Shown here piece by piece: positions 8,492 to 39,498 of a DNA stretch of 64,000 nt. Position numbers and translations under genes: made by a program. Where the stretch lies: the IMG/VR virus record IMGVR_UViG_3300031414_000012, positions 39,149 through 103,148 of that record. One strand, given 5' to 3'. The notes below the pieces were generated by a model, which saw only the letters and a list, made by a program, of their open reading frames with translations, ran no database searches and had not been told where the DNA came from. Numbering within the stretch: the first letter of the stretch is position 1; every line of letters starts with the position of its first letter. This DNA is from a virus.

Positions 8492-9033
8492 GCGTTTTGT
8501 GCCTCTTTCTGGGAATCCTTAGTACTCTGCGCAATGGCTAAACCAATCTCGTCAGGCTCAAGCTGTTCGAGCAGAAGGATAGGGATAACCCATGCGTTGC
8601 CGGCCAACAACTCACCGACTTCCTTTGCGCTACCAACCGCATCGAGATAGTCATCGCCAATAACTGAAAGTTGGTCATCAAACTGAACTACGCTCTGGGT
8701 GATTGTCTCAAGGTAAGCCCGATAGTCAGTTTCATCTTCAAAGCAACGCTGACGAACTTCGAAACATAGACCAAAGAGAAACTCACGCACGGGCGCTTTA
8801 GGAGCAATGTCATTCCAGACGGAGGCCAGGGTCTCTTTATTGAGCATCATCACAGGCAGCGTGTTAAACTGCGTATCGATAATCCACTCTTGGATATCCT
8901 CGTACTGGTCGGGACGAACACGGGCGGTGGAGATCAGACGACGCTTAATGATCTCACGAAATAAGACCCGCACTCGTTCAACACAACTCAGATTTGGATT
9001 AAGCGGATAAGGAACACTAGGGGTCTGGCTCAC
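8488..9033 (-). CDS. Hypothetical protein
   Basis: 181 aa ORF, GTG start, co-operonic. Confidence 0.6.
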   Translation of the reverse strand: MSQTPSVPYPLNPNLSCVERVRVLFREIIKRRLISTARVRPDQYEDIQEWIIDTQFNTLPVMMLNKETLASVWNDIAPKAPVREFLFGLCFEVRQRCFEDETDYRAYLETITQSVVQFDDQLSVIGDDYLDAVGSAKEVGELLAGNAWVIPILLLEQLEPDEIGLAIAQSTKDSQKEAQNA

Positions 9034-9042
9034 GGTTACACC

Positions 9043-9714
9043 TTAAAGGTTGTTATCGAGCATCATGCTTTTCAGAATGATATTCAATGTGATTGTAGAT
9101 TCCGGCCGAGAGTTCATTTGCAGAATCTCAGTCATGTTTGCCGTACCGGTTCGGGCGATTTGACGATTCATCTCAGCGAATGCGTCGAGGTCACCACCGC
9201 GCAGCTTAGCCAACTCCAGTCCAGTGTAGTTAAGACCTTTAGCATAAAAGATCTGCCACTCCGGGTAACTCAAACTCGCGCCCTTAGAGACGCCAGTGGG
9301 CTGGCCGGTTAACTGGTTAATGTGGAGGTTGTCATCCGGTACGCTGGTTTTCTTAACACGGAGCTGCTGCTGTCTACGCAAAGGTAAATGGATAACCATA
9401 TATTTCTTTGGTGTCAGCGTACAGTCACCGGTAACGGGGTCAGTCAACCAAAGTCGCTGATAGAATTCAATGCCCATCTTCTTACCGACTTCGATATTGC
9501 GTGTGGTATCCATCGCAACATCACGCAGTGGCGGTACAAAGATTCGAACATGAGCTTCGCCGGATTCAAGCTTTTGTATCCACGCGTCGAACTGCTCATC
9601 GGTCATACCAGCGAACAGATCTTTATATAACTTGGCGTTACCGCCACCGGGTAAGATTTCCTCTACCCATTTCAAAACCACTGCCTCGGCAGCAGCACGA
9701 TTACCAAGTGCCAT
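9043..9714 (-). CDS. Virion RNA polymerase beta-subunit C-terminal fragment (phiKZ gp149-like)
   Basis: LTDPVTG...LTGQPTGVSKGASLSYPEWQIFYAKG...LELAKLRGGD aligns by eye with the RpoB C-terminus (LYDGRTG...VTQQPLGG...FGEMEVWALEAYG...QEMLTVKSDD). Confidence 0.8.
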   Translation of the reverse strand: MALGNRAAAEAVVLKWVEEILPGGGNAKLYKDLFAGMTDEQFDAWIQKLESGEAHVRIFVPPLRDVAMDTTRNIEVGKKMGIEFYQRLWLTDPVTGDCTLTPKKYMVIHLPLRRQQQLRVKKTSVPDDNLHINQLTGQPTGVSKGASLSYPEWQIFYAKGLNYTGLELAKLRGGDLDAFAEMNRQIARTGTANMTEILQMNSRPESTITLNIILKSMMLDNNL

Positions 9715-11442: not shown

Positions 11443-11910
11443 CTATTTAATGGCCCTGTGGTTAACAACGATGTCGCAAAGAGTCAGGATATCGATAATA
11501 AGCTCCTGTCTGGCATTGTGCCACTTCTCACGACGTTCCTTGTTGGAAATGTACCGGCCGGGACTCGGCTGCGTTAGAACGCGTCTGAGAGCGTCTACGT
11601 CGTCATTGCCAAAATTGCCAAGACACCAGTCGAATACACGGCGGGATGCCAAGTCCGGGTACGCATTAGAAGCTGCATGCTCTGGTTGTGAATACAACAC
11701 ACGAGCGCGCTCTACTAACTGACGAGTGGACTTCGTGTATGTTTTAATGAAAGTATGCTTTGCTGGTAAATGTTCGCCAGTTTTGGTTGCATACATCACT
11801 TCCAGACGGTCGAGAATACCTACTGCAAGTTCAGGACTATTGGCGGCATGAATCAGGCCCAGAAGGGCCTGAAGATAGCCGTCTACAACAACAGCTTTTA
11901 ATTTGTTCAC
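11443..11910 (-). CDS. Hypothetical protein
   Basis: 155 aa ORF coupled to the uvsX stop. Confidence 0.55.
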   Translation of the reverse strand: MNKLKAVVVDGYLQALLGLIHAANSPELAVGILDRLEVMYATKTGEHLPAKHTFIKTYTKSTRQLVERARVLYSQPEHAASNAYPDLASRRVFDWCLGNFGNDDVDALRRVLTQPSPGRYISNKERREKWHNARQELIIDILTLCDIVVNHRAIK

Positions 11911-13352
11911 TATTTCATCCAGTAAGGTTTGTAATAGTCCGGGTCATCTTTAGGCAGACGCATGCGCAGGACGTCCATGGTGGAAAGCTCAGGACGGCGA
12001 TCGCCTTCGTCTTCTGTGTAGCACCAGTGCTTACTGGTCTCTAACAGCACATCCCAATCATAGCCAGCTGCTTTGATGTCGGTGTACAGTTGATCCATTG
12101 TGCAATAGTACTTAGACTCCAGACGATGGTGCGAGTTGTGCAGCAACTGATGTACTTCACATGTGATTTCCATCGCACGGTTCAGTTTATAATCAGCATC
12201 ACACAAACGACGCACGGTGGTACGTTGCAGTTTAACGTCAGGGTAGATCTCGCAGAAGTAACCCTTATCGTGTCCACCCATGCCCCAGCCTGGAGAGCTG
12301 CTGCTGTCTTTGTTCTGACGGAGATAACGCAGGAAGGTCAGACCTTCTTTAACACCTTCAGACTGAGACACAACCACATCGAACGTACCACCGGTTTTAC
12401 CTTGCTTATTACGCAGGTACTGAACCGTGATCGCTTGCAGGTCGGTATCGCCTTTGATGTTATCGTTAGCATCGCGTGGGAACTCAGGTGCCTTAGTTGT
12501 CTGGTTAATAAGAATTTCCAGGCTACGGCAATACAGCAGCACATCGGTCAGGAAGGTAAACTTCTCAGGAGTAGCTTTAAACTTAATGTTACCCTTCATG
12601 AAGCTCAGCTTCTTCTTATCACCGGCGTACTTGTCCATGATGATTTCATCACCAACGTGAGCAGTGATGATCATGTACAGACCACCTGAACCAGTCAGGT
12701 ATGGCATCTGCAACAGCATCTGGTTCTTAGCCATACTGCTTCGCATTGCTTCGGCGTTCAGCTCCGAGTCACCTACTTCGGCTTTGTCGTAAAGCTTGGA
12801 GACTTCTTCGATGGTCATCTGTGAGATGCCGTCAAGTTCTCCAATGGTCGGAAGCATGGCTTTAATCGGATTGCCTGACGCATCAAGGAATGGCGTTTCA
12901 CGAGTGTACGCTTTGCTGTCTTTGATTTTCATCGAGACGAGTGCACGTAACTGATCGAACCATTTAGAGCCGAACATGACAGTCAGGTCACTAAAGCTCA
13001 GACGACCTTCACGAACCAGGTCCAGGCCGGCGATTTCTTCAAAGCCTTGTGCCAGTGTACAATAACGCATCGGACTACCGGAACCTTCGGTGTCGTGCGC
13101 AACCAGGATACTACGGATGTATTTCGCTAAAGCTGACAGGGCATAGTGGTGCGAGATCGTAGATTTGTACATGTTACCACGACCGCCCACGCCTGTAATC
13201 TTCGGCAGACCGCCATTGACGATACTGTTGCCTCGCTTACCACGATAGATAACCCCAGTTGGGATATCTAACAGGCAGCCGACGTTCAGCCATGGACGGA
13301 CGTCCGGTGCCTTTTCGAAAAGGGCAAGTAAGGGATTCTCAGCGTTTGACAT
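11910..13352 (-). CDS. uvsX: UvsX/RecA-like recombinase (phiKZ gp152-like)
   Basis: GGLPKITGVGGRGNMYKST Walker A variant, HDTEGS, ELDGIS Walker B-like motif, LRNKQG; GAGGAG RBS. Confidence 0.8.
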   Translation of the reverse strand: MSNAENPLLALFEKAPDVRPWLNVGCLLDIPTGVIYRGKRGNSIVNGGLPKITGVGGRGNMYKSTISHHYALSALAKYIRSILVAHDTEGSGSPMRYCTLAQGFEEIAGLDLVREGRLSFSDLTVMFGSKWFDQLRALVSMKIKDSKAYTRETPFLDASGNPIKAMLPTIGELDGISQMTIEEVSKLYDKAEVGDSELNAEAMRSSMAKNQMLLQMPYLTGSGGLYMIITAHVGDEIIMDKYAGDKKKLSFMKGNIKFKATPEKFTFLTDVLLYCRSLEILINQTTKAPEFPRDANDNIKGDTDLQAITVQYLRNKQGKTGGTFDVVVSQSEGVKEGLTFLRYLRQNKDSSSSPGWGMGGHDKGYFCEIYPDVKLQRTTVRRLCDADYKLNRAMEITCEVHQLLHNSHHRLESKYYCTMDQLYTDIKAAGYDWDVLLETSKHWCYTEDEGDRRPELSTMDVLRMRLPKDDPDYYKPYWMK

Positions 13353-14291: not shown

Positions 14292-14684
14292 TTACAAAGC
14301 CATCCGTAGAACGCGCAGGATGTCTTCTCGCATTTGTGTGACTGACCCGTAACGAAGTGAAGCTGGCGTTTTGGATACGATGTCCATAGCCAGTTGGTAG
14401 AGCGGACCCCTTTCGGATGGGATGCTGATATGATGTTCAATAGTGCGTCCCCGTACGAGCATGGCGAAACGAGTAGGCAGTCTTAAAGCCTCACTGTCAC
14501 GACAAAACGAGAACTCACGATTCAAACGTTCTAATGCAACGGTCTCATCAAACGAGTCCGAAGCAATATAGCCAAACAAGCACGAAAGCGCTATCATCCG
14601 CTTGATGCGGTTGGGTAGCACTTTGCAGAACACACAACCCGCCGTAAAGGTGGGTATCTCGTGGTGCCATAATGTCATGGCCAT
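14292..14684 (-). CDS. Hypothetical protein
   Basis: ATG 14684 preceded by AAAGGAG, which removes the overlap with the RNase H gene. Confidence 0.6.
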   Translation of the reverse strand: MAMTLWHHEIPTFTAGCVFCKVLPNRIKRMIALSCLFGYIASDSFDETVALERLNREFSFCRDSEALRLPTRFAMLVRGRTIEHHISIPSERGPLYQLAMDIVSKTPASLRYGSVTQMREDILRVLRMAL

Positions 14685-18638: not shown

Positions 18639-21122
18639 TTATGCGTATTCAATTTGCAGACAACGATTAGCACCTTCCACTGTACCCACGTTCGCCGCAT
18701 CCATCACAATGACATCAGCATTAACTAATGTATCGTGAGCTTCTGGGTTGTGTGAGATGTAGAAGACCTGAGAGATTCGTCTAGAGTCAATCAGTTGCTT
18801 AAAGAACTCCACTACCCGCTGGCGATGTTCTGGGTCAAAAGTAGCACCAAGCTCATCGGGGTAGATTGGATAGCCGTGCATGTCAGTAAATGACAAGTAG
18901 ACTAACACAAAGGTGAAGTTAATAAATGCACGCATTGCACCGGACCCTTTAGCAATATCAGGAACCAGTTTAGGCCGACCTTTAATCTCGATAGGGAATC
19001 GATAGTCAAGATCGGTTGCATCGAGACCACACGGTTTAATGACCATGTCGTATGTCCATACACACGCAATGAAATCGTTCATCTGGTTAACCAGCGAGTC
19101 GATACATGCGCTCAGCTGATCTGCAATCAAACCGGACGTCGGTGACATCTGCTCGATAAGAATCTTCATATCAGACTCTTTCTGCATAAGCTCATCGCGC
19201 TGGCGCTCTAGACTGGCTACAATCTCCTTCGCTGACTTACGCTCGTTTAACTGATACGAGAGCTGTGCGAGTTCCGCTTGCTGCCGTTCGATGTTCTGAC
19301 GGAACTGATCGTTCAACTGAGACGCAAGATAATTACGCATTGCCGTATTAACGCTTTCCAAAGAAGTAGCGAGTTTGTCTTTTAAGGACTCCCACTCTTT
19401 CGCTTGGTTGTAAGCCTCGTTCAACTCATCGCGTTGGCGACGCCATTTCTGCTCATCGTGCGTTAAAGCAGCAACGATATCTTCCAGCTGTTTAGCTCGT
19501 TGAGTCAAGAACTGCGAACTTCCCCCACCTGCAATCTCAGTAGCACGTTTCAGTACTACATTGATTTCATCGATGCGGTTCTCAACACGAGTACGGTCAG
19601 CCAATACACGCAGTTGCTCTTTCCAGCGATAGAACAGATGTACGCAAGCGTTAGGGTCTTCGAATACCAAGTCGTTAGTTGCAAACTCTTTCCACAGCAC
19701 ACCCAAGGCAGTATTCGAACTCACGACGTTACGGAAGTCACCGAAGAGTCTACGCCACTCATTCAGTTCATCCAACCATGCCTGATTGCGAGCATACGCC
19801 TCGTTCACCTGATTCAGCTGGACATTGAGAAGCTCAATCTTCTCACCGAGGATACGCAGTTCGTTTTCAGAGACGCCCGGTACCCAAGTATAACCACACT
19901 TCGGACACTGGGTGTTTTCAGCACCTTCAATCATCTCTTTACGAGCAGATAACTTAGTGAGTTCGGTTGCCTTGATATTGCGAGCAGTGACCAACTCATC
20001 GTGCTTACGTTGAGCCTCAGCTAATGCGTCACGATTGTATCGCTTGCCAGGGTTTGGTGGGAGAGCCAACAGCTTATCCGTGATCGGACCATCGAGTTCA
20101 TCTGCTAGACGGAACAGATAGATAAAGTCACATTCACCATAGTCAAACTCGATGCGTTGCACTGAATAGAAATCTTTCAGTTTAGCTTTTAACTGCTCGA
20201 GTTCTTCCGTTAGAGTATTACCGCCAGAGCCAGCCATTACTGACATCTGATGGATCGTGTCTTCGATCTCTGTGAACTCACGACGACGTTCGACTAACCC
20301 AGCCTCTGCGTTTGCACGAGCTTGTTCGGCGTAGTTAATTTGGCGAAGGATGTTTTCAATGTCCTTTTGCCCCCGAAGCATCTCAGTATCCATGGATAGG
20401 ATACGATCGCCAGCCAGTGACTTCAATTCACCCATTGCCTGCTCAAGCCGACGGTTAGCTTCGTGTCTAGGTGCGGCGTGTTGGTCGACAGCGAACATAA
20501 GGTCGGTAATGTTGGCCGTTAAGCGGTCTATATGGTCCTGTAGATCGTTTAACTCCTCATCGGTAAACAAACCCTTGTACTCAACCGCCAGTCGCGTCTC
20601 GGCGTGTTTACGAGCACCTGTGGCATCACGAGCAATTGACTTCATTTTGTTAAATAAAGCTAATGCATAAGTCACATCGTAAGAACAGGCTTTCGATATC
20701 CACTCACGACGCTGCTGTGGTGTCATTGCTGTCAGTGTAATCTCACCTGTCAGTAACTGATGCAGTGCGTCCGTGTATTTGAAATATTGGAAGACCAGCT
20801 CTTTCTGAGTTGCGCCGGTACCCTCATCGTTCAATACTTCTTTGTTACGAATAAAGGTGTGCTTGTTACCCACACGGAAATCAGAGATTAGGGTGTAGTG
20901 GTTACCTTCGTCATCTGTGATCTCTACGTGTTTAAGTCCGCCGGCTAAAAAGTCCTGGCGAGAAGCGGGTAATGGTGACAGCTCTGCGAACAGAGAACTC
21001 TTACCAGACCCGTTTGTTCCGATGACTAACTGGTACTCAGACTCAGGGGTATAGACAACCCGTTTGATTCCAGCGTACAGCAACCGAACGTTGCCTTCTA
21101 AGATCAGTTTGTTAATGCGCAT
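18639..21122 (-). CDS. sbcC: SbcC/Rad50-like SMC ATPase
   Basis: Walker A GTNGSGKSS, long coiled coil with CPKC zinc hook, signature GSGAM, Walker B YPDE, H-loop ISHN; GGAG RBS at ATG 21122. Confidence 0.9.
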   Translation of the reverse strand: MRINKLILEGNVRLLYAGIKRVVYTPESEYQLVIGTNGSGKSSLFAELSPLPASRQDFLAGGLKHVEITDDEGNHYTLISDFRVGNKHTFIRNKEVLNDEGTGATQKELVFQYFKYTDALHQLLTGEITLTAMTPQQRREWISKACSYDVTYALALFNKMKSIARDATGARKHAETRLAVEYKGLFTDEELNDLQDHIDRLTANITDLMFAVDQHAAPRHEANRRLEQAMGELKSLAGDRILSMDTEMLRGQKDIENILRQINYAEQARANAEAGLVERRREFTEIEDTIHQMSVMAGSGGNTLTEELEQLKAKLKDFYSVQRIEFDYGECDFIYLFRLADELDGPITDKLLALPPNPGKRYNRDALAEAQRKHDELVTARNIKATELTKLSARKEMIEGAENTQCPKCGYTWVPGVSENELRILGEKIELLNVQLNQVNEAYARNQAWLDELNEWRRLFGDFRNVVSSNTALGVLWKEFATNDLVFEDPNACVHLFYRWKEQLRVLADRTRVENRIDEINVVLKRATEIAGGGSSQFLTQRAKQLEDIVAALTHDEQKWRRQRDELNEAYNQAKEWESLKDKLATSLESVNTAMRNYLASQLNDQFRQNIERQQAELAQLSYQLNERKSAKEIVASLERQRDELMQKESDMKILIEQMSPTSGLIADQLSACIDSLVNQMNDFIACVWTYDMVIKPCGLDATDLDYRFPIEIKGRPKLVPDIAKGSGAMRAFINFTFVLVYLSFTDMHGYPIYPDELGATFDPEHRQRVVEFFKQLIDSRRISQVFYISHNPEAHDTLVNADVIVMDAANVGTVEGANRCLQIEYA

Positions 21123-21357
21123 GGTGACTCCGGAAATACATTCATCTATACGATACTGCTGTCGTGTTAATTTTAATTCCTTGTTGTGGTAATTTATTAC
21201 AATTACCACTAATCAAATGGAAGAGTTTTTAATATTAACTCTAATAATAAATATATTCCTTCCCTCCTTTCTGCTTAGACAGAAAGGGTTTTGTTTGTAT
21301 GCAACTTTGCAAATTATAGGACAAGCAAATTAATTTTTACTAAAGCGGAGCTGGGCT

Positions 21358-26416: not shown

Positions 26417-27001
26417 ATGGCAAAAGTTAGCCTTACTACCCTTTGGAATGACTTCCATGCTTGGATCGCAAGGAAGGACAACCCACACGCAGTTACTGCT
26501 GATCAGGCTGGTGCGTATACCCGGTCGGAGATAGATTCACTGTTGGCTGGTTACTTACCGGCTGGCGTTTTACCGATTACATCTTTTGGTTTCCCCAACA
26601 GTGACCGTATAGAGTACAGTGCCTCCAGGCTGACAGGTAACATCTGTCGAGTCGTATTTGCTAATATGGCTACCCCGGTTTTAATGGATGGTCGTAAGTA
26701 CCTGTTGGAGCAAGCGTCGTGGCAATTCACGGTCCCAGCTAACACCACTGTCTATCTCTATTTAAAACGAGATGCTTCGTTGGGATATAACTCGGTGCAG
26801 CTTGAGGCGGCAACCGCTGCTCGCGCCGATACGTCAAGTAACTTCTTCATTGGCACTGCCGTGAGCGATGGTACTAATATCACCGTTACCATTAAACCCG
26901 TGGTCATGATATCGGTTTATCGCATCTCACCCGATCCTATCGGCGGTGCCATCCCAACCTCCACTGGCCTGCCAACTGAGACTGGTACCTTTAAGTGGTG
27001 A
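26417..27001 (+). CDS. Short tail-fibre-associated protein (single NPH motif)
   Basis: RKDNPHAVTADQ; N- and C-termini homologous to the next gene. Confidence 0.7.
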   Translation: MAKVSLTTLWNDFHAWIARKDNPHAVTADQAGAYTRSEIDSLLAGYLPAGVLPITSFGFPNSDRIEYSASRLTGNICRVVFANMATPVLMDGRKYLLEQASWQFTVPANTTVYLYLKRDASLGYNSVQLEAATAARADTSSNFFIGTAVSDGTNITVTIKPVVMISVYRISPDPIGGAIPTSTGLPTETGTFKW

Positions 27002-27005
27002 TAAC

Positions 27006-29696
27006 ATGATTTCATTAGTTAAGTTGGGAAGCGACTTTGCTTCTTGGATATTGCGTAGGGATAACCCTCATCAGGTTACAGCAGATCAGATTGGTACGTA
27101 CGCTACGACTGAACTGAATGAAAGCACCCTAAACGCTGACCTGGTCCCAGCAGGAACAATCCCAATAACACGTTTTGGTAACTTGCTGTGGATGCCCATA
27201 AACTTCTCAGGTAGTTTCGAAGGCGCAACTAGGACAGAAACGTTCTGGTTCAACGCGATGACTGTTGAAGACGACGGTACACTAGTGCTGTTGATGAACG
27301 CGACTAATGGCGTTCGTGAGTCTGTCTACTACAGCTCGTTCGAGATAGCCAATGCTGAGATCGTTAAGCACAATCCCATTGCTACAGAGTACCGACCCCC
27401 ATTCCTCAAATCGACGGAGTGGATTGGTGGTCTTTATCAATGCATGGCTAAAACAGCTATCTGGGGTAAGCTCTACGGTAACAGCTCGTACGACGCCTTT
27501 ATCGTTTTAACCAGTGGGACGTTAAACCCAGAGAGTCATGTTGGCGCGTATCTGGATAACACTGGTTTGAGTGTTACTGACTCAGGAACAGTTGTTGCAT
27601 CAGGACAGTATGTCTATCTCCTGCAACCATCGACTGGTGTGGATATTGATGTCTATCGAATTGCGATTGTCGATATCAAAACTAAGTCTGTTGTTTCGTG
27701 GCAGAAAGTGACCGGCATTACTACCTACGGCATAAATTTAAATGCCCCGAACTATCCGAGCATTCATGTCGCTGACAATCTCTTCGGTGCGGAGATCAAC
27801 GATTATCCGTTATTCCGTAAGGTGGGTAATCCACCAACGTTTAGTCCGTCGCGTATCCAAATCTACGGCGACGTAAACCCGACGACTGGGGAGATTTGGT
27901 TTAGGTGGTTAGCCTGCGGTCAGCACCAATCGAATAACACGTACTACGGCGACGCCATGGGCTTTGTTTGTGTATTCGATCCGAGTACGATGACAGCCAC
28001 AGTGCCCGAGGCTTTACGTGGTGACACACAGATTCAGGAGGCCAGTAACGGTCCTGGTTATGTGTTATCCGGACCAAATGCGTACAGCGACAATGCTGTT
28101 AAGATCCGTGCAAATGCCCAACCACACGATAGTGCCATAATCGGTCAAAACGGAATAGGTTTCACGATCAATTACGGAAATGAAAACGCCGGGACAATCT
28201 GTCCATTTACCGTACCCAACTTCAAGAACTATTGGGAGTTCTGGGATTACAGTAAATATACCACGGTAAATAAAACAAACCGTAACTTGATACGTCGTTA
28301 CCCCGGCCCGTTTGGCGATTCGTCGAGGTTGCTGCATGTATTGGCAACAGATCGCATTGGATGCATCTCCTACACCAATAACGGTGACGATTGGAACAGC
28401 CGTCGTACCTCGTTTCCCGTGACTGCGATTACTGCGTCGATGAACTATACCTTCAATACGCAAAGATTAGGAACGATAAACGGATTCCAACCCGTGGATC
28501 GCACCGACCTGATCTCCAGTTTTAAAGGTACGCACTGTGAATACCATGACTTGAATGGTACTTCTGTAAGCGTGGGTTGTGGTAGACTCTGGGAGAATAG
28601 CCTTAGTGCGTTCACCACCGTTGACAAGGACTTGAACTACTCCGGTACTGTCTCAGTAACACAGTCACAGTGGGACTCGTTAAAGCAGGCAGTAAAAGCC
28701 GCTGCCGGTGAAAGTATCTGGCCGTCTAATGTGACTCTGAACGTCTATATGGAATTGCAGGTCTTTAACGACACGCGTATCCCGTGCATTGGTATTGTCA
28801 GCTTGTATGATGCAAGTGCGCGTACCCTAATGACTGTAGCGTTTAGTTTCAACACGAGCGGTAGAACGGGTGCGATTGCGACCCTAACTTTTAAGCGAGT
28901 TCTGTTCACTTGGAACCAAACAAACTCAAACGGTATTCTCAATCGTGGTCGTGAGACACTGGCTCCGACGTGCGTGGCTAGAAATGCAAGCGAGGGTTTC
29001 ACTGTTGTCTCAATGTCGGCGTACTATGCTAACAACGGGATCGGTAGTCAGCCAGGATTGGGTATTACGGTGATGCACATTGATGGTGCCGATGACTATC
29101 GCAGTGACTGGATTAAGACCGCTTCTAATAACCCATGGTATTTCGGTTTCACACATTACGGTGTCATACCGGGCTATGGGTTAGGTGCACACGACATGAC
29201 GGCTAACCGCTCACTAAGTGGCACAGGGTTGGTGTGGAGACCGATAGGTAAGACGAAGACCGAGATAGAAGCCTGGACTGCTGGCACGCCACAGTACATG
29301 GTGATGTCTCAGCAAGCACCGGTTGGTTGGTTTGCTTATGTCGGTGAGTCAGTTCCTGTTTATATGGCCGGTAAATACGTGACGGTTCCCGCAACGTCCA
29401 TCGATCTCACGAAGGTGAAATCGAATCCGGCTAATAGCAAGTTCTACGTTTACGTAGTGGACACTGGGTCGACGTTTGAATACCAAACCTTCACTGCCCC
29501 AGTTGAAGAAACACTGTCACGGTGTTATGTGGGTTATATTGAAACCGACAGTCTGAAGATCGCTCGACAGACTATGACCAAAATAACCCGCATCGGCATT
29601 TATCGTTTATCTGCGGCACAAGTCGGTTCGGCTATCCCAGTTGTGGGTGGTCTACCTACGTCGTCTGCTTCACTTGAATGGACTAAGACCAGCTAG
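27006..29696 (+). CDS. Tail fibre / receptor-binding protein
   Basis: RRDNPHQVTADQ N-terminus, large beta-rich central region; ATG 27006 follows the previous stop. Confidence 0.7.
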   Translation: MISLVKLGSDFASWILRRDNPHQVTADQIGTYATTELNESTLNADLVPAGTIPITRFGNLLWMPINFSGSFEGATRTETFWFNAMTVEDDGTLVLLMNATNGVRESVYYSSFEIANAEIVKHNPIATEYRPPFLKSTEWIGGLYQCMAKTAIWGKLYGNSSYDAFIVLTSGTLNPESHVGAYLDNTGLSVTDSGTVVASGQYVYLLQPSTGVDIDVYRIAIVDIKTKSVVSWQKVTGITTYGINLNAPNYPSIHVADNLFGAEINDYPLFRKVGNPPTFSPSRIQIYGDVNPTTGEIWFRWLACGQHQSNNTYYGDAMGFVCVFDPSTMTATVPEALRGDTQIQEASNGPGYVLSGPNAYSDNAVKIRANAQPHDSAIIGQNGIGFTINYGNENAGTICPFTVPNFKNYWEFWDYSKYTTVNKTNRNLIRRYPGPFGDSSRLLHVLATDRIGCISYTNNGDDWNSRRTSFPVTAITASMNYTFNTQRLGTINGFQPVDRTDLISSFKGTHCEYHDLNGTSVSVGCGRLWENSLSAFTTVDKDLNYSGTVSVTQSQWDSLKQAVKAAAGESIWPSNVTLNVYMELQVFNDTRIPCIGIVSLYDASARTLMTVAFSFNTSGRTGAIATLTFKRVLFTWNQTNSNGILNRGRETLAPTCVARNASEGFTVVSMSAYYANNGIGSQPGLGITVMHIDGADDYRSDWIKTASNNPWYFGFTHYGVIPGYGLGAHDMTANRSLSGTGLVWRPIGKTKTEIEAWTAGTPQYMVMSQQAPVGWFAYVGESVPVYMAGKYVTVPATSIDLTKVKSNPANSKFYVYVVDTGSTFEYQTFTAPVEETLSRCYVGYIETDSLKIARQTMTKITRIGIYRLSAAQVGSAIPVVGGLPTSSASLEWTKTS

Positions 29697-29743
29697 AGCT
29701 AACCCAAACTTATGAGTTAGGTCTTTGGTTTGGCCCTCCCGTT

Positions 29744-29787
29744 GTCGCTCAGATTGGTGCTGTTCCGGCAGGACGTACCGTGAACGG
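29744..29787 (+). repeat. 44-bp perfect direct repeat, copy 1
   Basis: GTCGCTCAGATTGGTGCTGTTCCGGCAGGACGTACCGTGAACGG, identical to 31437-31480. Confidence 0.95.
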
Positions 29788-30289
29788 TCAAAGTCTTGAT
29801 AAGGACATCTGGGTTGGTGGTGTACTACCCGGTATGATAGTCATGTGGTACAGCGACTGGATTCCACCGGGTTGGTTACTCTGCAACGGGCAGGGTGTAG
29901 GCAATAACCCAAAACTGCGATCGGTGGTTGGGAATAACGTTCCTGACTTTCGTGGGTATTTCCCTAGGGCTAAAGATGGTGGCCGTGGGATAGACCCCGA
30001 TTACGGACGTGGTTTGGGTTCCATTCAAAACGATGGTTTACAGAACATAACCGGTACCTTGTTAGTCGATGTTGCGGCTACAGAAAACATTGGTCTCGGT
30101 TTGTCTGGTGCGTTTTACGATGGAGGTAGCCTCGGTAGACCTTCTGATAAAGGAACGACATGGCGTGACGAGATTCGAAGCATTCGCTTTGATGCCTCAC
30201 GCAGTGTAAGGACTGCATCGGAAACGAGACCGAAGAACATCGCGATTAACTTTATCATCGCTGGTGATAACGCTACTACGCAACTTTAG
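29780..30289 (+). CDS. Orphan tail-fibre C-terminal cassette (tail-collar domain plus tip); possibly silent
   Basis: PGMIVMW..IPPGWLLCNGQ..VPDFRGYFPR..ETRPKNIAINFII; frame open from 29687 with no start codon before the GTG inside the repeat. Confidence 0.75.
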   Translation: MNGQSLDKDIWVGGVLPGMIVMWYSDWIPPGWLLCNGQGVGNNPKLRSVVGNNVPDFRGYFPRAKDGGRGIDPDYGRGLGSIQNDGLQNITGTLLVDVAATENIGLGLSGAFYDGGSLGRPSDKGTTWRDEIRSIRFDASRSVRTASETRPKNIAINFIIAGDNATTQL

Positions 30290-30291
30290 AA

Positions 30292-30330
30292 TTGAAAAGA
30301 GGGTTGTCCTCTTTTCAAACGAGGACAACT
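30292..30330 (+). promoter_or_regulatory. Mutually exclusive hairpins overlapping the RBS of the fibre gene
   Basis: TTGAAAAGAGG/CCTCTTTTCAA (30292-30318) versus GTTGTCCTC/GAGGACAAC (30303-30311 with 30321-30329). Confidence 0.6.
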
Positions 30331-30332
30331 AA

Positions 30333-31769
30333 ATGGCTACAAAAGTTATTAAGTACCCGTTGGATACGACTGGAAAGTCGAAAGACAACTTGGTGCTAGC
30401 TGAGCCTCATGTTGTTCCACGAGATAACTCTCGGGCGTTTGCGACCTTCTATGGTCCATTCTATACCGATAGCCTCGTGGTTCGACAGAAGGGTAACGTC
30501 ACACCCTTGAAGCAAGGCACCGACTATAAACCGATCATGCTGTATCAGGATGCTACAGTGATGTTGGGTCTGTCGGTTAGTGCTGCGATTATCATTACCA
30601 ACAAATCACTCGGTAGCGATTTTGAGATCGATTATCAGGTGGTGGGTGGTCCGTTCAGTCTGTCCTCCGGTGCGGTGGCGGATTTGTTCGAAGCGCTTGA
30701 GCTGGATAACCGCAAAGTTAACTGGGTTGACGTTCTGGGTAAACCCGTGCGCTTCCCGCCAGCACCTCACCTTCATGACGCCGATGACCTTTACGGCATG
30801 GAGTTCGTGACGGAGGCTCTGGAAAACCTGCGTATTGCTATCCTTACTGGCGACGTGGCGTCGCATGAACAGATCTACGATTATATCGATCGTGTTAAAG
30901 ATCTGATCTACATCGATATTGATAAAGTCAATGCCCGTATCGATGCCACCAACAATGACGTGACTAAACTTCGTCAGGATCTTCAGAACCTGATTGACGG
31001 TGATGTTGCTGATTTGAAACGCAACCTGGCTAACCACATCGCTGACAAAAATAACCCACACGGGGTGACTAAAACCCAAGTAGGTTTAAGCAACGTACAG
31101 AACTATTCGATGTCGACGAATGCTAACGCAATCGACGAAGCGAACAGCACTACGTACTTGTCACCATCGGCAATGTGGTACGCACTGAAGCAGAAAGTCC
31201 TACCGATTATCAACAACCACATCGCGGATAAAAACAATCCGCATGGTGTTACTAAAAGTCAGGTCGGTCTGGGCGATGTTCCAAACAACCCAATGGCTAC
31301 TCAGCAAGAAGCTGAAGCCGCTGCTACGAACGACCGCTTCATGTCGCCGCTGCGCGTGATGCAGTTGATCAATTCTAAAGTAATGCCTACCATCAACAAC
31401 CACATCAACAACCGTAACAACCCCCACGGTGTAACGGTCGCTCAGATTGGTGCTGTTCCGGCAGGACGTACCGTGAACGGGAAACCGTTGACGACTGATA
31501 TTTGGTTGTCAGCAGGTGACGTTGGTGCATATACCACCGGACAGGTAGACCAGATCGTTGCCCAGCTCCGTGCCGAGATGCAGCAGTCTGGTGGTGGGCA
31601 GCTGAAGATGGGTCCTGCGCAGAGCTTTAAAGAGCGTCGTGCTAACGAGCGTATGGGTGGTGGCGTCATGACCGCATGGGCCGACTACGGCGGCTCTAAC
31701 TACTGGGTCGTATTGCGTCCACTGTATTACTGGAAAAATAACCAATGGTTGCTGACGCCTTATGAGTGA
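30333..31769 (+). CDS. Tail fibre protein (NPH repeats, enterobacterial-phage-type tip)
   Basis: Three NPHGVT repeats; RTVNGKPLTTDIWLSAGDVGA motif; C-terminal LRPLYYWKNNQW. Confidence 0.85.
   Translation: MATKVIKYPLDTTGKSKDNLVLAEPHVVPRDNSRAFATFYGPFYTDSLVVRQKGNVTPLKQGTDYKPIMLYQDATVMLGLSVSAAIIITNKSLGSDFEIDYQVVGGPFSLSSGAVADLFEALELDNRKVNWVDVLGKPVRFPPAPHLHDADDLYGMEFVTEALENLRIAILTGDVASHEQIYDYIDRVKDLIYIDIDKVNARIDATNNDVTKLRQDLQNLIDGDVADLKRNLANHIADKNNPHGVTKTQVGLSNVQNYSMSTNANAIDEANSTTYLSPSAMWYALKQKVLPIINNHIADKNNPHGVTKSQVGLGDVPNNPMATQQEAEAAATNDRFMSPLRVMQLINSKVMPTINNHINNRNNPHGVTVAQIGAVPAGRTVNGKPLTTDIWLSAGDVGAYTTGQVDQIVAQLRAEMQQSGGGQLKMGPAQSFKERRANERMGGGVMTAWADYGGSNYWVVLRPLYYWKNNQWLLTPYE
31437..31480 (+). 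repeat. 44-bp perfect direct repeat, copy 2 (inside the fibre gene)
   Basis: Identical to 29744-29787 and read in the same frame (VAQIGAVPAGRTVNG). Confidence 0.95.
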
Positions 31770-32280
31770 TTTATTGACAGTCACTGGTTTCCACCAGTAC
31801 ACACCTGAGGACGCCATGGATGGCGTTCCTTATTACAGGGACAGTGAGGGCCGTGACTGGTATCAGCTGCGGTATCTCTTCAACGATGACACAATGAAAT
31901 TCATCTACGATGAAGAAGGTCGTCTGTTGTGTTTCGCTAAGTCTGCCGAGTTTATGGCTCCTACTGGTACTATCAGTGAGATGCCACTGAAGGACTGGCC
32001 GCCGGGTGTAAGTCTGAATGGCTTCTGGCGCTGTAGTCCACACGCAATCGAGTGTCGTGTTGAGAACTTAGGCGATCGAATGATTGCACTCACTGAGTTT
32101 TTCAAAGACATTGCGGCTGAAACGAAATCAGTTCGCTTGGCGATTGAAGACTGGCAGTCTGATCCGTGTTACCCGTTAATTCCATTCCCGCGCTTCTCTA
32201 ACGGTATTGTTGAGAAGGCGGTTGAGAAAGGGATGGACATTAATGAGTATCGTCTTTTAACCTTGAAGGAGGCTCCCTAA
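31762..32280 (+). CDS. Tail fibre assembly chaperone (Tfa-like)
   Basis: YYRDSEGRDWYQ...FNDDTMKFIYDEEG motif; directly after the fibre gene. Confidence 0.75.
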   Translation: MSDLLTVTGFHQYTPEDAMDGVPYYRDSEGRDWYQLRYLFNDDTMKFIYDEEGRLLCFAKSAEFMAPTGTISEMPLKDWPPGVSLNGFWRCSPHAIECRVENLGDRMIALTEFFKDIAAETKSVRLAIEDWQSDPCYPLIPFPRFSNGIVEKAVEKGMDINEYRLLTLKEAP

Positions 32281-32870
32281 TGACTGATTACAGTCTGTTC
32301 ACGAAAGACAGCATCATCCGTCGCAAGACGGCTATCGAAGCGGGCTACGTGAACAATAAAGATGACTTGGGTGGTGAAACCATCTGGGGCATCACGATCG
32401 CCACTGCACGCGAATATGGCTATAAAGGTGCCATGCGCGATATGCCGCAGTCTCTTGCTTTTGAGATCTACGACAAGATGTGGTGGCAGCGTCTCATGCT
32501 CGATGACATCCTCGCGTTCCAGCCGTTCCTCGCCGACCGTCTGTTTGACTTCGGCATCAATGCTGGTCGTAAGAATGCCGTTATCGCGTTGCAGCGTATC
32601 CTCAACAGCCTGAACAACCAAGAGAAGCTTTACGCTGACCTGGTTGTTGACGGTGGTATGGGCACTAAGACCATTACTGCCATTAAGGCATTGCAGGGTA
32701 TTCGTGGTGCTGAAGGTATGGCTATCCTGGCTATGGCACTGACGCATTTCCAAACCTACTACTACTTAGACATTTCTGAGAAACGTAAACAGAACGAAAC
32801 CTTTACTTACGGTTGGTTCCGTCGCGTGTACCAGGAAGTCAAAGAGTACGCTAAAGCAGCCCTGGGGTAA
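32280..32870 (+). CDS. Endolysin, glycoside hydrolase family 108 with PG-binding domain
   Basis: EAGYVNNKDDLGGETIWGIT, LFDFGINAG, LQRILN, VDGGMGTKT, FTYGWFRR. Confidence 0.9.
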   Translation: MTDYSLFTKDSIIRRKTAIEAGYVNNKDDLGGETIWGITIATAREYGYKGAMRDMPQSLAFEIYDKMWWQRLMLDDILAFQPFLADRLFDFGINAGRKNAVIALQRILNSLNNQEKLYADLVVDGGMGTKTITAIKALQGIRGAEGMAILAMALTHFQTYYYLDISEKRKQNETFTYGWFRRVYQEVKEYAKAALG

Positions 32871-38931: not shown

Positions 38932-39498
38932 TTAGCCCTGCTGAGCCGGTTTAACGTCGTCGTTGCTAAAGCCAGACAGTTCAGTGGTCTTCACCTGATC
39001 GTCCAGAGTAGCAGCGGCAATGCCAACGGTCAGCGGCAGTGTATCACCCAGCACGTAGTGTTTGCTGAAGTCTACAGTTACTTTCCACGGATAGTCCGCG
39101 TTGTAATCTGCATCGCCTTCAGCCATTTGCGAAACGTTGATCTCGTACGATCCGTCTTCCAGTGGAACGGACTTAATGCCGTCTTCGATCAGACCACTTT
39201 TAACTGCGGCGGCTACGCCTTCCACAGTGGCGGAAGTTCCCGCTGGTGCGCGCCAGCTTGACAGTGCCAGGAGCACTTTAACTGACGGACGGGTATAGGT
39301 AACAGTAACCGAACCAGGCAGTTTGTCTGCATCGGCACCAGTTACCGCGACAGTGGTATTCAGTGCATCGGTAGCGCCTTTGCCATTTGCCGTGGCAGGA
39401 GCAGCCAGAACGAGATCGGAGAGTTTGAAAGTGGTGTTGTTGTCTTTGTTGATGAGATCAACAAGGGCCTGTTTGCTGCTACTAGCAGTAATCGCCAT
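38932..39498 (-). CDS. Paralog-array protein, probable high-copy fibre subunit
   Basis: SSKQALVDLINKDN...GSVTVTYTR; C-terminal LDDQVKTTELSGF; GAGGA RBS, own TATG and terminator; MCP-like codon bias judged by eye. Confidence 0.75.
   Translation of the reverse strand: MAITASSSKQALVDLINKDNNTTFKLSDLVLAAPATANGKGATDALNTTVAVTGADADKLPGSVTVTYTRPSVKVLLALSSWRAPAGTSATVEGVAAAVKSGLIEDGIKSVPLEDGSYEINVSQMAEGDADYNADYPWKVTVDFSKHYVLGDTLPLTVGIAAATLDDQVKTTELSGFSNDDVKPAQQG

Follow-up and report, generated by a model that had tools for sequence, protein, structure and literature searches.

Introduction

To our knowledge, the programmed switches of fibre tip known in phages use a dedicated enzyme, either an invertase or a reverse transcriptase. 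Invertible tail-fibre segments have reportedly been found in Mu (G/Gin), P1 (C/Cin) and p15B (Min). The Gin, Cin and Min systems rely on inverted crossover sites of ~26-34 bp and an adjacent serine invertase. In the T-even phages, distal parts of fibres and adhesins reportedly undergo mosaic exchange at conserved motifs, and in the pilE/pilS system of Neisseria variant cassettes lacking both promoter and start codon stay intact and are used through RecA-type recombination. In Salmonella Typhimurium, rhs-main is accompanied by rhs-CT-orphan, a C-terminal fragment without a start codon that shares 522 bp at 95% identity with the main gene (Koskiniemi et al., 2014, PMC3967940). After a duplication that preserves the original, this orphan is fused to the main gene by homologous recombination, and the fusion is reversible (PMC3967940). 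Here, we analyse a tail-fibre locus in a 64,000-nucleotide (nt) stretch of viral DNA (the window; positions 39,149 to 103,148 of the IMG/VR record IMGVR_UViG_3300031414_000012), in which an orphan fibre tip lies upstream of a complete fibre gene and is linked to it by an exact 44-nt direct repeat. Coordinates refer to the window unless stated otherwise.

A preliminary description of this DNA had proposed that homologous recombination at the repeat switches the tip of the fibre. In the reading that we consider the most likely, at about even odds, the segment 29744-30289 is a conserved, selectively maintained alternative receptor-binding tip for the fibre encoded at 30333-31769, reached by recombination at the repeat. 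Below, we present the repeat and its evolution, the constraint on the orphan cassette, the fused fibres of relatives and the read depth across the locus, and weigh this reading against its alternatives.

Two tips behind one repeat

The locus comprises the following elements, given with amino acid (aa) lengths and the ratio of non-synonymous to synonymous substitution rates (dN/dS) where available:

29744-29787, plus strand: repeat copy 1 (R1), head of the orphan tip
29780-30289, plus strand: orphan tail-collar tip, its coding frame continuing from R1; 169-aa open reading frame (ORF) P0006
30290-30332, plus strand: intergenic fibre leader, with two mutually exclusive hairpins ahead of the fibre ATG
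30333-31436, plus strand: fibre N-terminal anchor domain and shaft (phrog_2163, 2e-115; dN/dS 0.067)
31437-31480, plus strand: repeat copy 2 (R2), shaft/tip junction of the expressed fibre gene
31481-31769, plus strand: expressed tip 2, of the chaperone-dependent type (dN/dS 0.106)
31762-32280, plus strand: tail-fibre assembly chaperone (phrog_136, 1.2e-13)

A repeat search reproduced the exact 44-nt direct repeat of the preliminary description: R1 and R2 are 100% identical at a spacing of 1693 nt and, as had also been claimed, read the same 14 and 2/3 codons in one frame. In the 103,148-nt contig that contains the window and is itself 38% of the genome, R1 and R2 are the only occurrences of the sequence; no further site lies within a Hamming distance of 16 on either strand of the whole contig. 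The two copies are direct, not inverted. R2 encodes residues 369-383 of the 478-aa fibre (P0003, 30333-31769), directly after the third of three 183-nt (61-aa) shaft repeats (31032-31435), each of which carries an NNPHG motif. Past the repeat the copies part in the way first noted, R1 leading into a tail-collar tip and R2 into a different C-terminal tip. No second repeat of at least 16 nt links the ends of the two tips, which share this single block only.

The orphan frame is open from 29687 to 30289 without an ATG upstream of the tip, and the cassette stop lies 43 nt before the fibre ATG, on its upstream side. The earlier statement that R1 has neither a shaft nor an upstream ATG is borne out, the first in-frame ATG, GTG or TTG being GTG 29780, inside the repeat. 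The orphan tip matches the Pfam Collar domain PF07484 (38.1 bits against a cut-off of 24, residues 49-93 of P0001) and phrog_523, 'tail collar fiber protein', at 1e-35. Judged by homology, it is a bona fide tip of this fibre family and not a foreign domain, because the orthologous fibres P0007, P0162 and P0282 carry the collar tip fused.

Concerted evolution of the repeat

The layout is old. An IMG/VR contig of 4852 nt (L002), with 77% DNA identity to the window, has the same order of upstream-gene end, orphan collar cassette, 478-aa fibre, chaperone and endolysin. It also carries an exact 44-nt repeat with identical boundaries and an identical 1693-nt spacing, and no indel separates the two genomes across these 1693 nt. 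Within L002 the two copies match each other throughout, but at 7 of 44 positions they depart from the copies in the window; three of the seven changes are synonymous, and the remainder produce an AG-to-TS change. Under independent evolution of the copies, the probability of this pattern is ~2e-12. A third lineage is represented by sequencing run X23, 3-9% diverged from the window, in which the unitig graph (k=31) breaks at the same coordinates and the repeat forms one collapsed 44-nt unitig with one changed letter, so that both X23 copies share that change.

Since the copies co-vary, R1 and R2 exchange sequence repeatedly. This pattern of substitution shows that recombination has kept R1 and R2 alike in three lineages or more, a case of concerted evolution, and the co-variation is the strongest evidence that recombination at the repeat happens, on an evolutionary scale.

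Selection on the orphan cassette

Between the window and L002, the orphan tip has a dN/dS of 0.068 (167 codons, dS 1.0, 91% aa identity), about the same as that of the N-terminal domain and shaft. Judged by this constraint, the cassette is a functional coding sequence under full purifying selection. The first 17 codons past R1 encode a neck motif, in every full fibre the continuation of the shaft, and here 8 synonymous differences stand against 2 conservative replacements. The neck codons are thus under selection at the amino-acid level, and therefore the translated product includes them. Their constraint would fit a segment that works as the continuation of a trimeric shaft.

Other routes to expression of the cassette were considered and rejected. 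To be read as an extension of the upstream 896-aa gene, the cassette would need a -1 frameshift, but the 10-nt overlap contains no slippery site, and in L002 a TGA stands in the tip frame past the stop of that gene. The internal ATG 29831 was rejected as sole start, given that the 17 preceding codons are under amino-acid selection.

Mosaic tips and fused collar fibres

One shaft family bears at least five tip types, and in every case homology breaks at or beside the repeat. The types are distributed as follows, where Erwinia phage pEa_SNUABM_54 (272,635 bp) is the nearest GenBank relative and is syntenic with the window:

Chaperone-dependent tip: the window, L002, P0157-P0161
Short tip: pEa_SNUABM_54
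gp53-like tip, no chaperone: L003
Another tip type: P0163
Collar tip: P0007 (on L036), P0162, P0282

The collar-tipped fibre P0282 (540 aa, on a 2870-nt JGI contig) is a member of the 90% cluster of the L002-type fibre. It differs from the L002 fibre at 1 position in the first 383 residues, its junction peptide is the L002 allele, and its next ~58 residues are those of the L002 orphan apart from 2. The distal tip is a different collar allele that ends in the conserved C-terminus of the family. The shaft of P0282 is far closer to that of L002 than is the shaft of the window (91%), and the orphan layout is common to window and L002; the fused gene therefore arose in a lineage that already had the orphan layout. 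P0282 would be most simply explained by a template joined at the repeat. The swapped arrangement that the preliminary description had proposed to look for in relatives, a fibre of shaft, repeat and collar tip, thus exists, and in a near-identical L002 background. The more distant orthologues P0162 and P0007 carry fused collar tips too.

When 35 related jumbo-phage fibre loci were scanned for exact repeats of at least 24 nt, no second orphan-tip layout turned up. What the scan did return was a shaft-internal periodicity of 183/195 nt and short stretches shared by paralogous fibre genes. In other jumbo phages, paralogous fibre genes are exactly identical over 25-128 nt at L143 (3782/6803 and 6999/10931), L117 (4673/8360) and L125 (2457/6205), and these stretches include the opening 45 nt of two genes. 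Gene conversion between such paralogues seems to be common in this phage group. Further scans returned little: among viral contigs a conserved 24-mer matched L002 only, and genome-contig scans with P0003 and with a 22-mer across the junction of block and repeat gave no match.

Shafts differ between relatives in their number of repeats, from one to five or more (one in P0007, several in P0164), so that shaft length varies by whole repeats. In sample X22, a second related phage is present on a 44-kb contig at a depth of 12.6. Its fibre, matched at 31050-31069 and 31218-31243 of the window, runs from the first shaft repeat straight into the junction, which encodes the L002-type peptide allele in different nucleotides.

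The insertion site and its flanks

A megablast search of 29000-32300 against GenBank phages gave no match, and a protein-level search was therefore needed. The fibre of pEa_SNUABM_54 is 74% identical to that of the window across residues 1-406 and stands in the same gene order. The orphan cassette is absent from that genome, in which only 41 nt separate the 895-aa gene from the fibre gene. On this comparison, the cassette is an insertion of ~600 bp between a conserved TTATGA motif and the leader hairpin of the fibre gene. The upstream elements are:

27006-29696, plus strand: virion or fibre-like gene, 896 aa (phrog_3573, 1.3e-108), upstream of the cassette
29710-29715, plus strand: TTATGA motif, candidate phiKZ-type late promoter (TATG)
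29718-29743, plus strand: 26-nt non-coding block, adjoining R1 on its upstream side

The TTATGA motif is kept upstream of the fibre or cassette in three genomes (the window, L001 at 8968-8974 and L002 at 1715-1720); alignments show it in the window, in L002 and at the empty site of pEa_SNUABM_54. Heptamers of the TTTATG type are enriched 6-8 times ahead of ORFs in the contig, and the motif may serve as a late promoter. The 26-nt block is 100% identical in L002 despite an overall identity of 77%; at that mean identity, the chance of zero change across it is ~1e-3. It is present at R1 only and is not repeated elsewhere in the window. Folded as RNA, the leader 29709-29800 showed no significant structure (z-scores +0.35 and +0.13).

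The fibre leader itself can form two hairpins, one terminator-like and the other an alternative 10-bp stem (30302-30330) that buries the GAGGA ribosome-binding site. In L002 the leader is kept at 41 of 43 nt with the 10-bp stem intact, and the z-score is -2.8 in both genomes. The cassette-free relative L003 has a different hairpin at its fibre leader.

Recombination enzymes

Two genes for recombination-related proteins are found in the window:

11910-13352, minus strand: UvsX-like recombinase (phrog_97, 2e-30), the candidate enzyme for recombination at the repeat
18639-21209, minus strand: SbcC/Rad50-like gene (phrog_77)

The preliminary description had credited the phage with both UvsX and RuvC. 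The UvsX-like gene is supported by its PHROGs match, whereas neither PF02075 nor PF04848 detected a RuvC. In the contig, Pfam profiles for RecA, Rad51, RuvC and Pox_A22 gave no matches, the UvsX-like gene being visible through PHROGs only. That the window holds no site-specific recombinase agrees with our searches, which returned no PF00239 or PF00589 in the 103-kb contig; the complete genome of pEa_SNUABM_54 (MW879341) likewise has neither. A reverse transcriptase (PF00078) was not found in the 103-kb contig.

Read depth across the repeats

Read data were taken from Logan contigs built at k=31. The 44-nt repeat is longer than k, so a junction of shaft, repeat and collar tip makes no new k-mer, and depths were compared instead in X1 (probably the source sample), X22 (a separate study, ~100x) and X23; run X3 (3-5x, with holes) was left out. 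Across all four runs, whose contigs break at the repeat, no joint was detected between 29700 and 31500. The unitig graph is alike in all three: flank A, the repeat, a 1709-nt segment B, the repeat again and flank C. Depths were:

X1: A 9.3, B 10.3, C 9.9; B over flanks 1.07
X22: A 102.1, B 101.3, C 96.2; B over flanks 1.02
X23: A 18.6, B 20.5, C 19.7; B over flanks 1.07

Raised coverage across the repeat-bounded segment, an expectation of the proposed switch, was thus not seen, B standing at 1.02-1.07 times the flanks in the three samples.

A proposed mechanism

In the mechanism we propose, general recombination of the UvsX type would cross R2 of one genome copy with R1 of another. An unequal crossover would give a 1693-bp tandem duplication, and an intramolecular one a 1693-bp circle. 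Both products would contain a single frame running from ATG 30333 through anchor, shaft, repeat and collar tip to the stop at 30289, behind the native ribosome-binding site. Since the orphan tip sits upstream of the fibre gene and shares its orientation and frame, either product would yield an intact gene without destroying tip 2 or the chaperone; the duplication would leave the tip-2 gene and chaperone intact alongside the new fusion. Cells that hold a duplication or circle would then release virions with collar-tipped fibres. The reciprocal deletion would lose anchor and shaft and should be a dead end. With 1.7 kb of homology, the duplication should collapse readily, which would make the state reversible, rare at steady state and compatible with the observed depths.

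The same handles could also serve bet-hedging without a recombinase, a possible but rather unlikely variant. In every infection, the handles would cross among replicating genomes, and a small fraction of templates would encode a collar-tipped second fibre that phenotypic mixing would place on some virions of every burst. Such constant use would explain both the shaft-like constraint of the cassette and the letter-perfect handle.

The switch idea of the preliminary description therefore stands in part: the tip is genuine, the repeat copies exchange sequence and a fused fibre exists in P0282, but the raised coverage is missing. Several observations weigh against a tip reached by recombination. 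Constraint at the level of the shaft is more easily explained by expression in every infection than by occasional use, and the canonical start GTG 29780 has a purine-rich stretch 7-10 nt upstream in both lineages. The handle, at 44 bp, is close to the shortest length at which homologous recombination is efficient, and passive gene conversion alone could keep the copies identical. In P0282, the distal half of the tip is unlike the L002 orphan, and the fusion may be a repeat-induced mis-join within its 2870-nt contig. The flat depth implies that recombinants, whether duplications or circles, amount to at most a few percent, and no deletion variant is detectable by depth in X1, X22 or X23. Finally, a relative with fibre P0280 has that fibre unbroken in a 28,589-nt Logan contig (k=31), which means that it lacks the duplicated repeat and that the cassette is dispensable in some lineages. 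The neighbours on this contig are at least 90% identical in aa. It carries the 896-aa gene, the fibre, the chaperone and the endolysin, and encodes the proteins P0280, P0299, P0287 and P0294; the comparison suggests that close relatives are polymorphic for the presence or absence of the cassette. At the P0280 junction, Ile replaces the Val encoded by GTG.

Alternative explanations

That the cassette is a stand-alone gene is the main alternative and a serious one, though on balance we doubt it. In this case, a free 169-aa tail-collar protein would be made from GTG 29780 as the first cistron of a late fibre operon, acting as an accessory receptor-binding or fibre-associated protein; it would have originated as a 5'-truncated fibre gene, and the 44-nt identity would be a by-product of that origin kept by passive gene conversion. 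GTG 29780 is the only canonical in-frame start and is kept in L002. AGGA lies 6 nt upstream of it in the window, with GAG at the same place in L002; however, the AGGA itself is not kept there, and the same start context occurs inside the fibre gene at R2. The 169-aa protein is predicted by gene callers in four assemblies, its homologues commonly include free collar-domain proteins of 160-200 aa, and a dN/dS of 0.068 fits constant expression. A conserved motif of the TATG type stands just upstream, and the cassette stop falls 2 nt before the conserved hairpins over the fibre ribosome-binding site, which suggests translational coupling. The product, however, would have only 17 residues before the collar domain and no anchor to the virion. 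These 17 residues are the shaft-neck motif, constrained like the collar domain itself, and every close homologue of known context (P0007, P0162, P0282) is the tip of a full fibre. We think it improbable that the cassette is an archived allele, a displaced older tip reused on evolutionary time scales only, by rare recombination, and without a role in ordinary infections. The locus is highly mosaic, with its five or more tips on one shaft family all switching at the same junction, some close relatives lack the cassette or have it unlinked, and read depth reveals no subpopulation. Yet relaxed constraint would be expected of an archive, whereas the cassette is more constrained than the expressed tip (0.068 against 0.106, with dS saturated), and the 1693 nt shared with L002 are free of indels.

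The remaining explanations are far less probable. Very little speaks for a site-specific switch, in which an unrecognised recombinase would use the 44-nt repeats as its sites to excise or integrate the 1693-bp segment: the repeat boundaries are sharp and conserved and the 26-nt block beside R1 is perfectly conserved, but the block is found at R1 only, the repeats are direct, and neither the contig (38% of the genome) nor the complete nearest relative has a PF00239 or PF00589 protein. The fallback of the preliminary description, a scar of a recent tip swap or a decaying, functionless remnant of an insertion, is refuted by the comparison with L002, and we give it almost no weight. The empty site of pEa_SNUABM_54 does indicate an insertion of ~600 bp; the layout, however, is common to genomes at 77% nt identity and a dS of ~1, the frame is intact and under purifying selection rather than decaying in relatives, and the repeat co-varies. 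An assembly artefact, with the cassette or the repeat a mis-join, can be practically dismissed. The window does derive from a metagenome assembly, but the same order recurs in the JGI 103-kb contig, in L002 and in a 5604-nt ENA contig, and exact copies of the fibre (P0003) and of the 169-aa ORF (P0006) stand on an independent 271,721-nt ENA contig. Three samples, taken from different studies, also share one unitig graph with depths of 1:1:1, which speaks against it, and the equal depths together with the independent large-k assemblies rule such an artefact out.

Host genome and neighbouring genes

The genome to which the window belongs is that of a phiKZ-like jumbo phage of ~272 kb. It has the jumbo size and the split multisubunit RNA polymerase of that group, of which one part was located:

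9043-9714: RNA polymerase beta fragment (basis phrog_3233)

The 896-aa gene upstream of the cassette ends at its own natural stop, as does its orthologue in pEa_SNUABM_54, and the exact 896-aa protein is already on record. Next to it, a 194-aa protein (26417-27001) shares with it the C-terminal ~115 residues, a region that corresponds to the C-terminus of phrog_3573, plus phrog_26864. The relative L003 is without the 194-aa gene, the 896-aa gene and the chaperone. The chaperone accompanies tip 2 and is absent in relatives bearing collar or gp53-like tips; it is followed by endolysin and spanin genes. Between the window and L002, dN/dS is 0.125 for the chaperone and 0.070 for the endolysin. Outside the window, the contig holds an exact 61-nt direct repeat (G000:C1:3171-3231 and 14310-14370). 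It consists of one hairpin terminator and a TTTATGCC motif, used in two intergenic regions, and is unrelated to the fibre repeat.

Comparison with known systems

A full-text search of the literature turned up no phage fibre locus with this layout, which is weak evidence of novelty. Like the invertible segments of Mu, P1 and p15B, the locus combines a constant fibre part with alternative 3' tips stored beside the gene, an arrangement that serves host-range switching in those systems. Unlike them, it has direct repeats, no reverse-strand copy within a Hamming distance of 16 and no invertase that we could find, and its alternative tip lies upstream in the same orientation. With the T-even fibres it shares a short conserved coding motif at module borders that acts as the crossover point, relatives of the window changing tip exactly at this junction; T-even exchange takes place between genomes, whereas here both partners reside within one genome and are homogenised. 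Conversion from pilS is non-reciprocal and uses homology on both sides of the variable part, while this locus offers one homology block only. Diversity-generating retroelements (DGR) of the BPP-1 type resemble it in linking a direct repeat to a fibre tip and to a change of tropism. In contrast to these, the contig encodes no reverse transcriptase, and the repeats are exact, without adenine-specific differences, and lie at the junction and not in the variable part.

The locus points to ordinary recombination, with no dedicated switch enzyme, as a way of changing the fibre tip and hence probably host range. It also offers an unusually clean natural example of concerted evolution, confined to 44 nt with fixed boundaries, and sets a lower bound on the homology usable by the recombination system of a jumbo phage. 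Cassettes without a start are ignored or annotated as small "tail collar" genes, so predictions of host range for jumbo phages, as well as therapy cocktails, would miss a latent second specificity.

The closest analogue is found in the orphan C-terminal modules of Rhs (and CdiA). In both cases, a 5'-truncated fragment encodes an alternative C-terminal module and has a stretch of sequence in common with the full-length gene at the junction. The shared junction measures 522 bp at 95% in Rhs and 44 nt here, exact (100%) and in frame, with expression by recombination being the inferred step. The Rhs fragment has no start; here there is neither ATG nor shaft, and the frame is closed upstream in L002, although the internal GTG 29780 could start translation. 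The Rhs orphan lies downstream, so that a deletion suffices for fusion, whereas the phage orphan lies upstream and only a duplication or circle would give one. The cargo differs as well, being a toxin with its immunity gene in a bacterium in one case and a phage receptor-binding tip in the other. The locus suggests a third route to tip switching: a silent tip would wait upstream of the gene, and general recombination would gain access to it via a short exact handle. This would be the logic of the Rhs orphan, transplanted to a phage receptor-binding protein.

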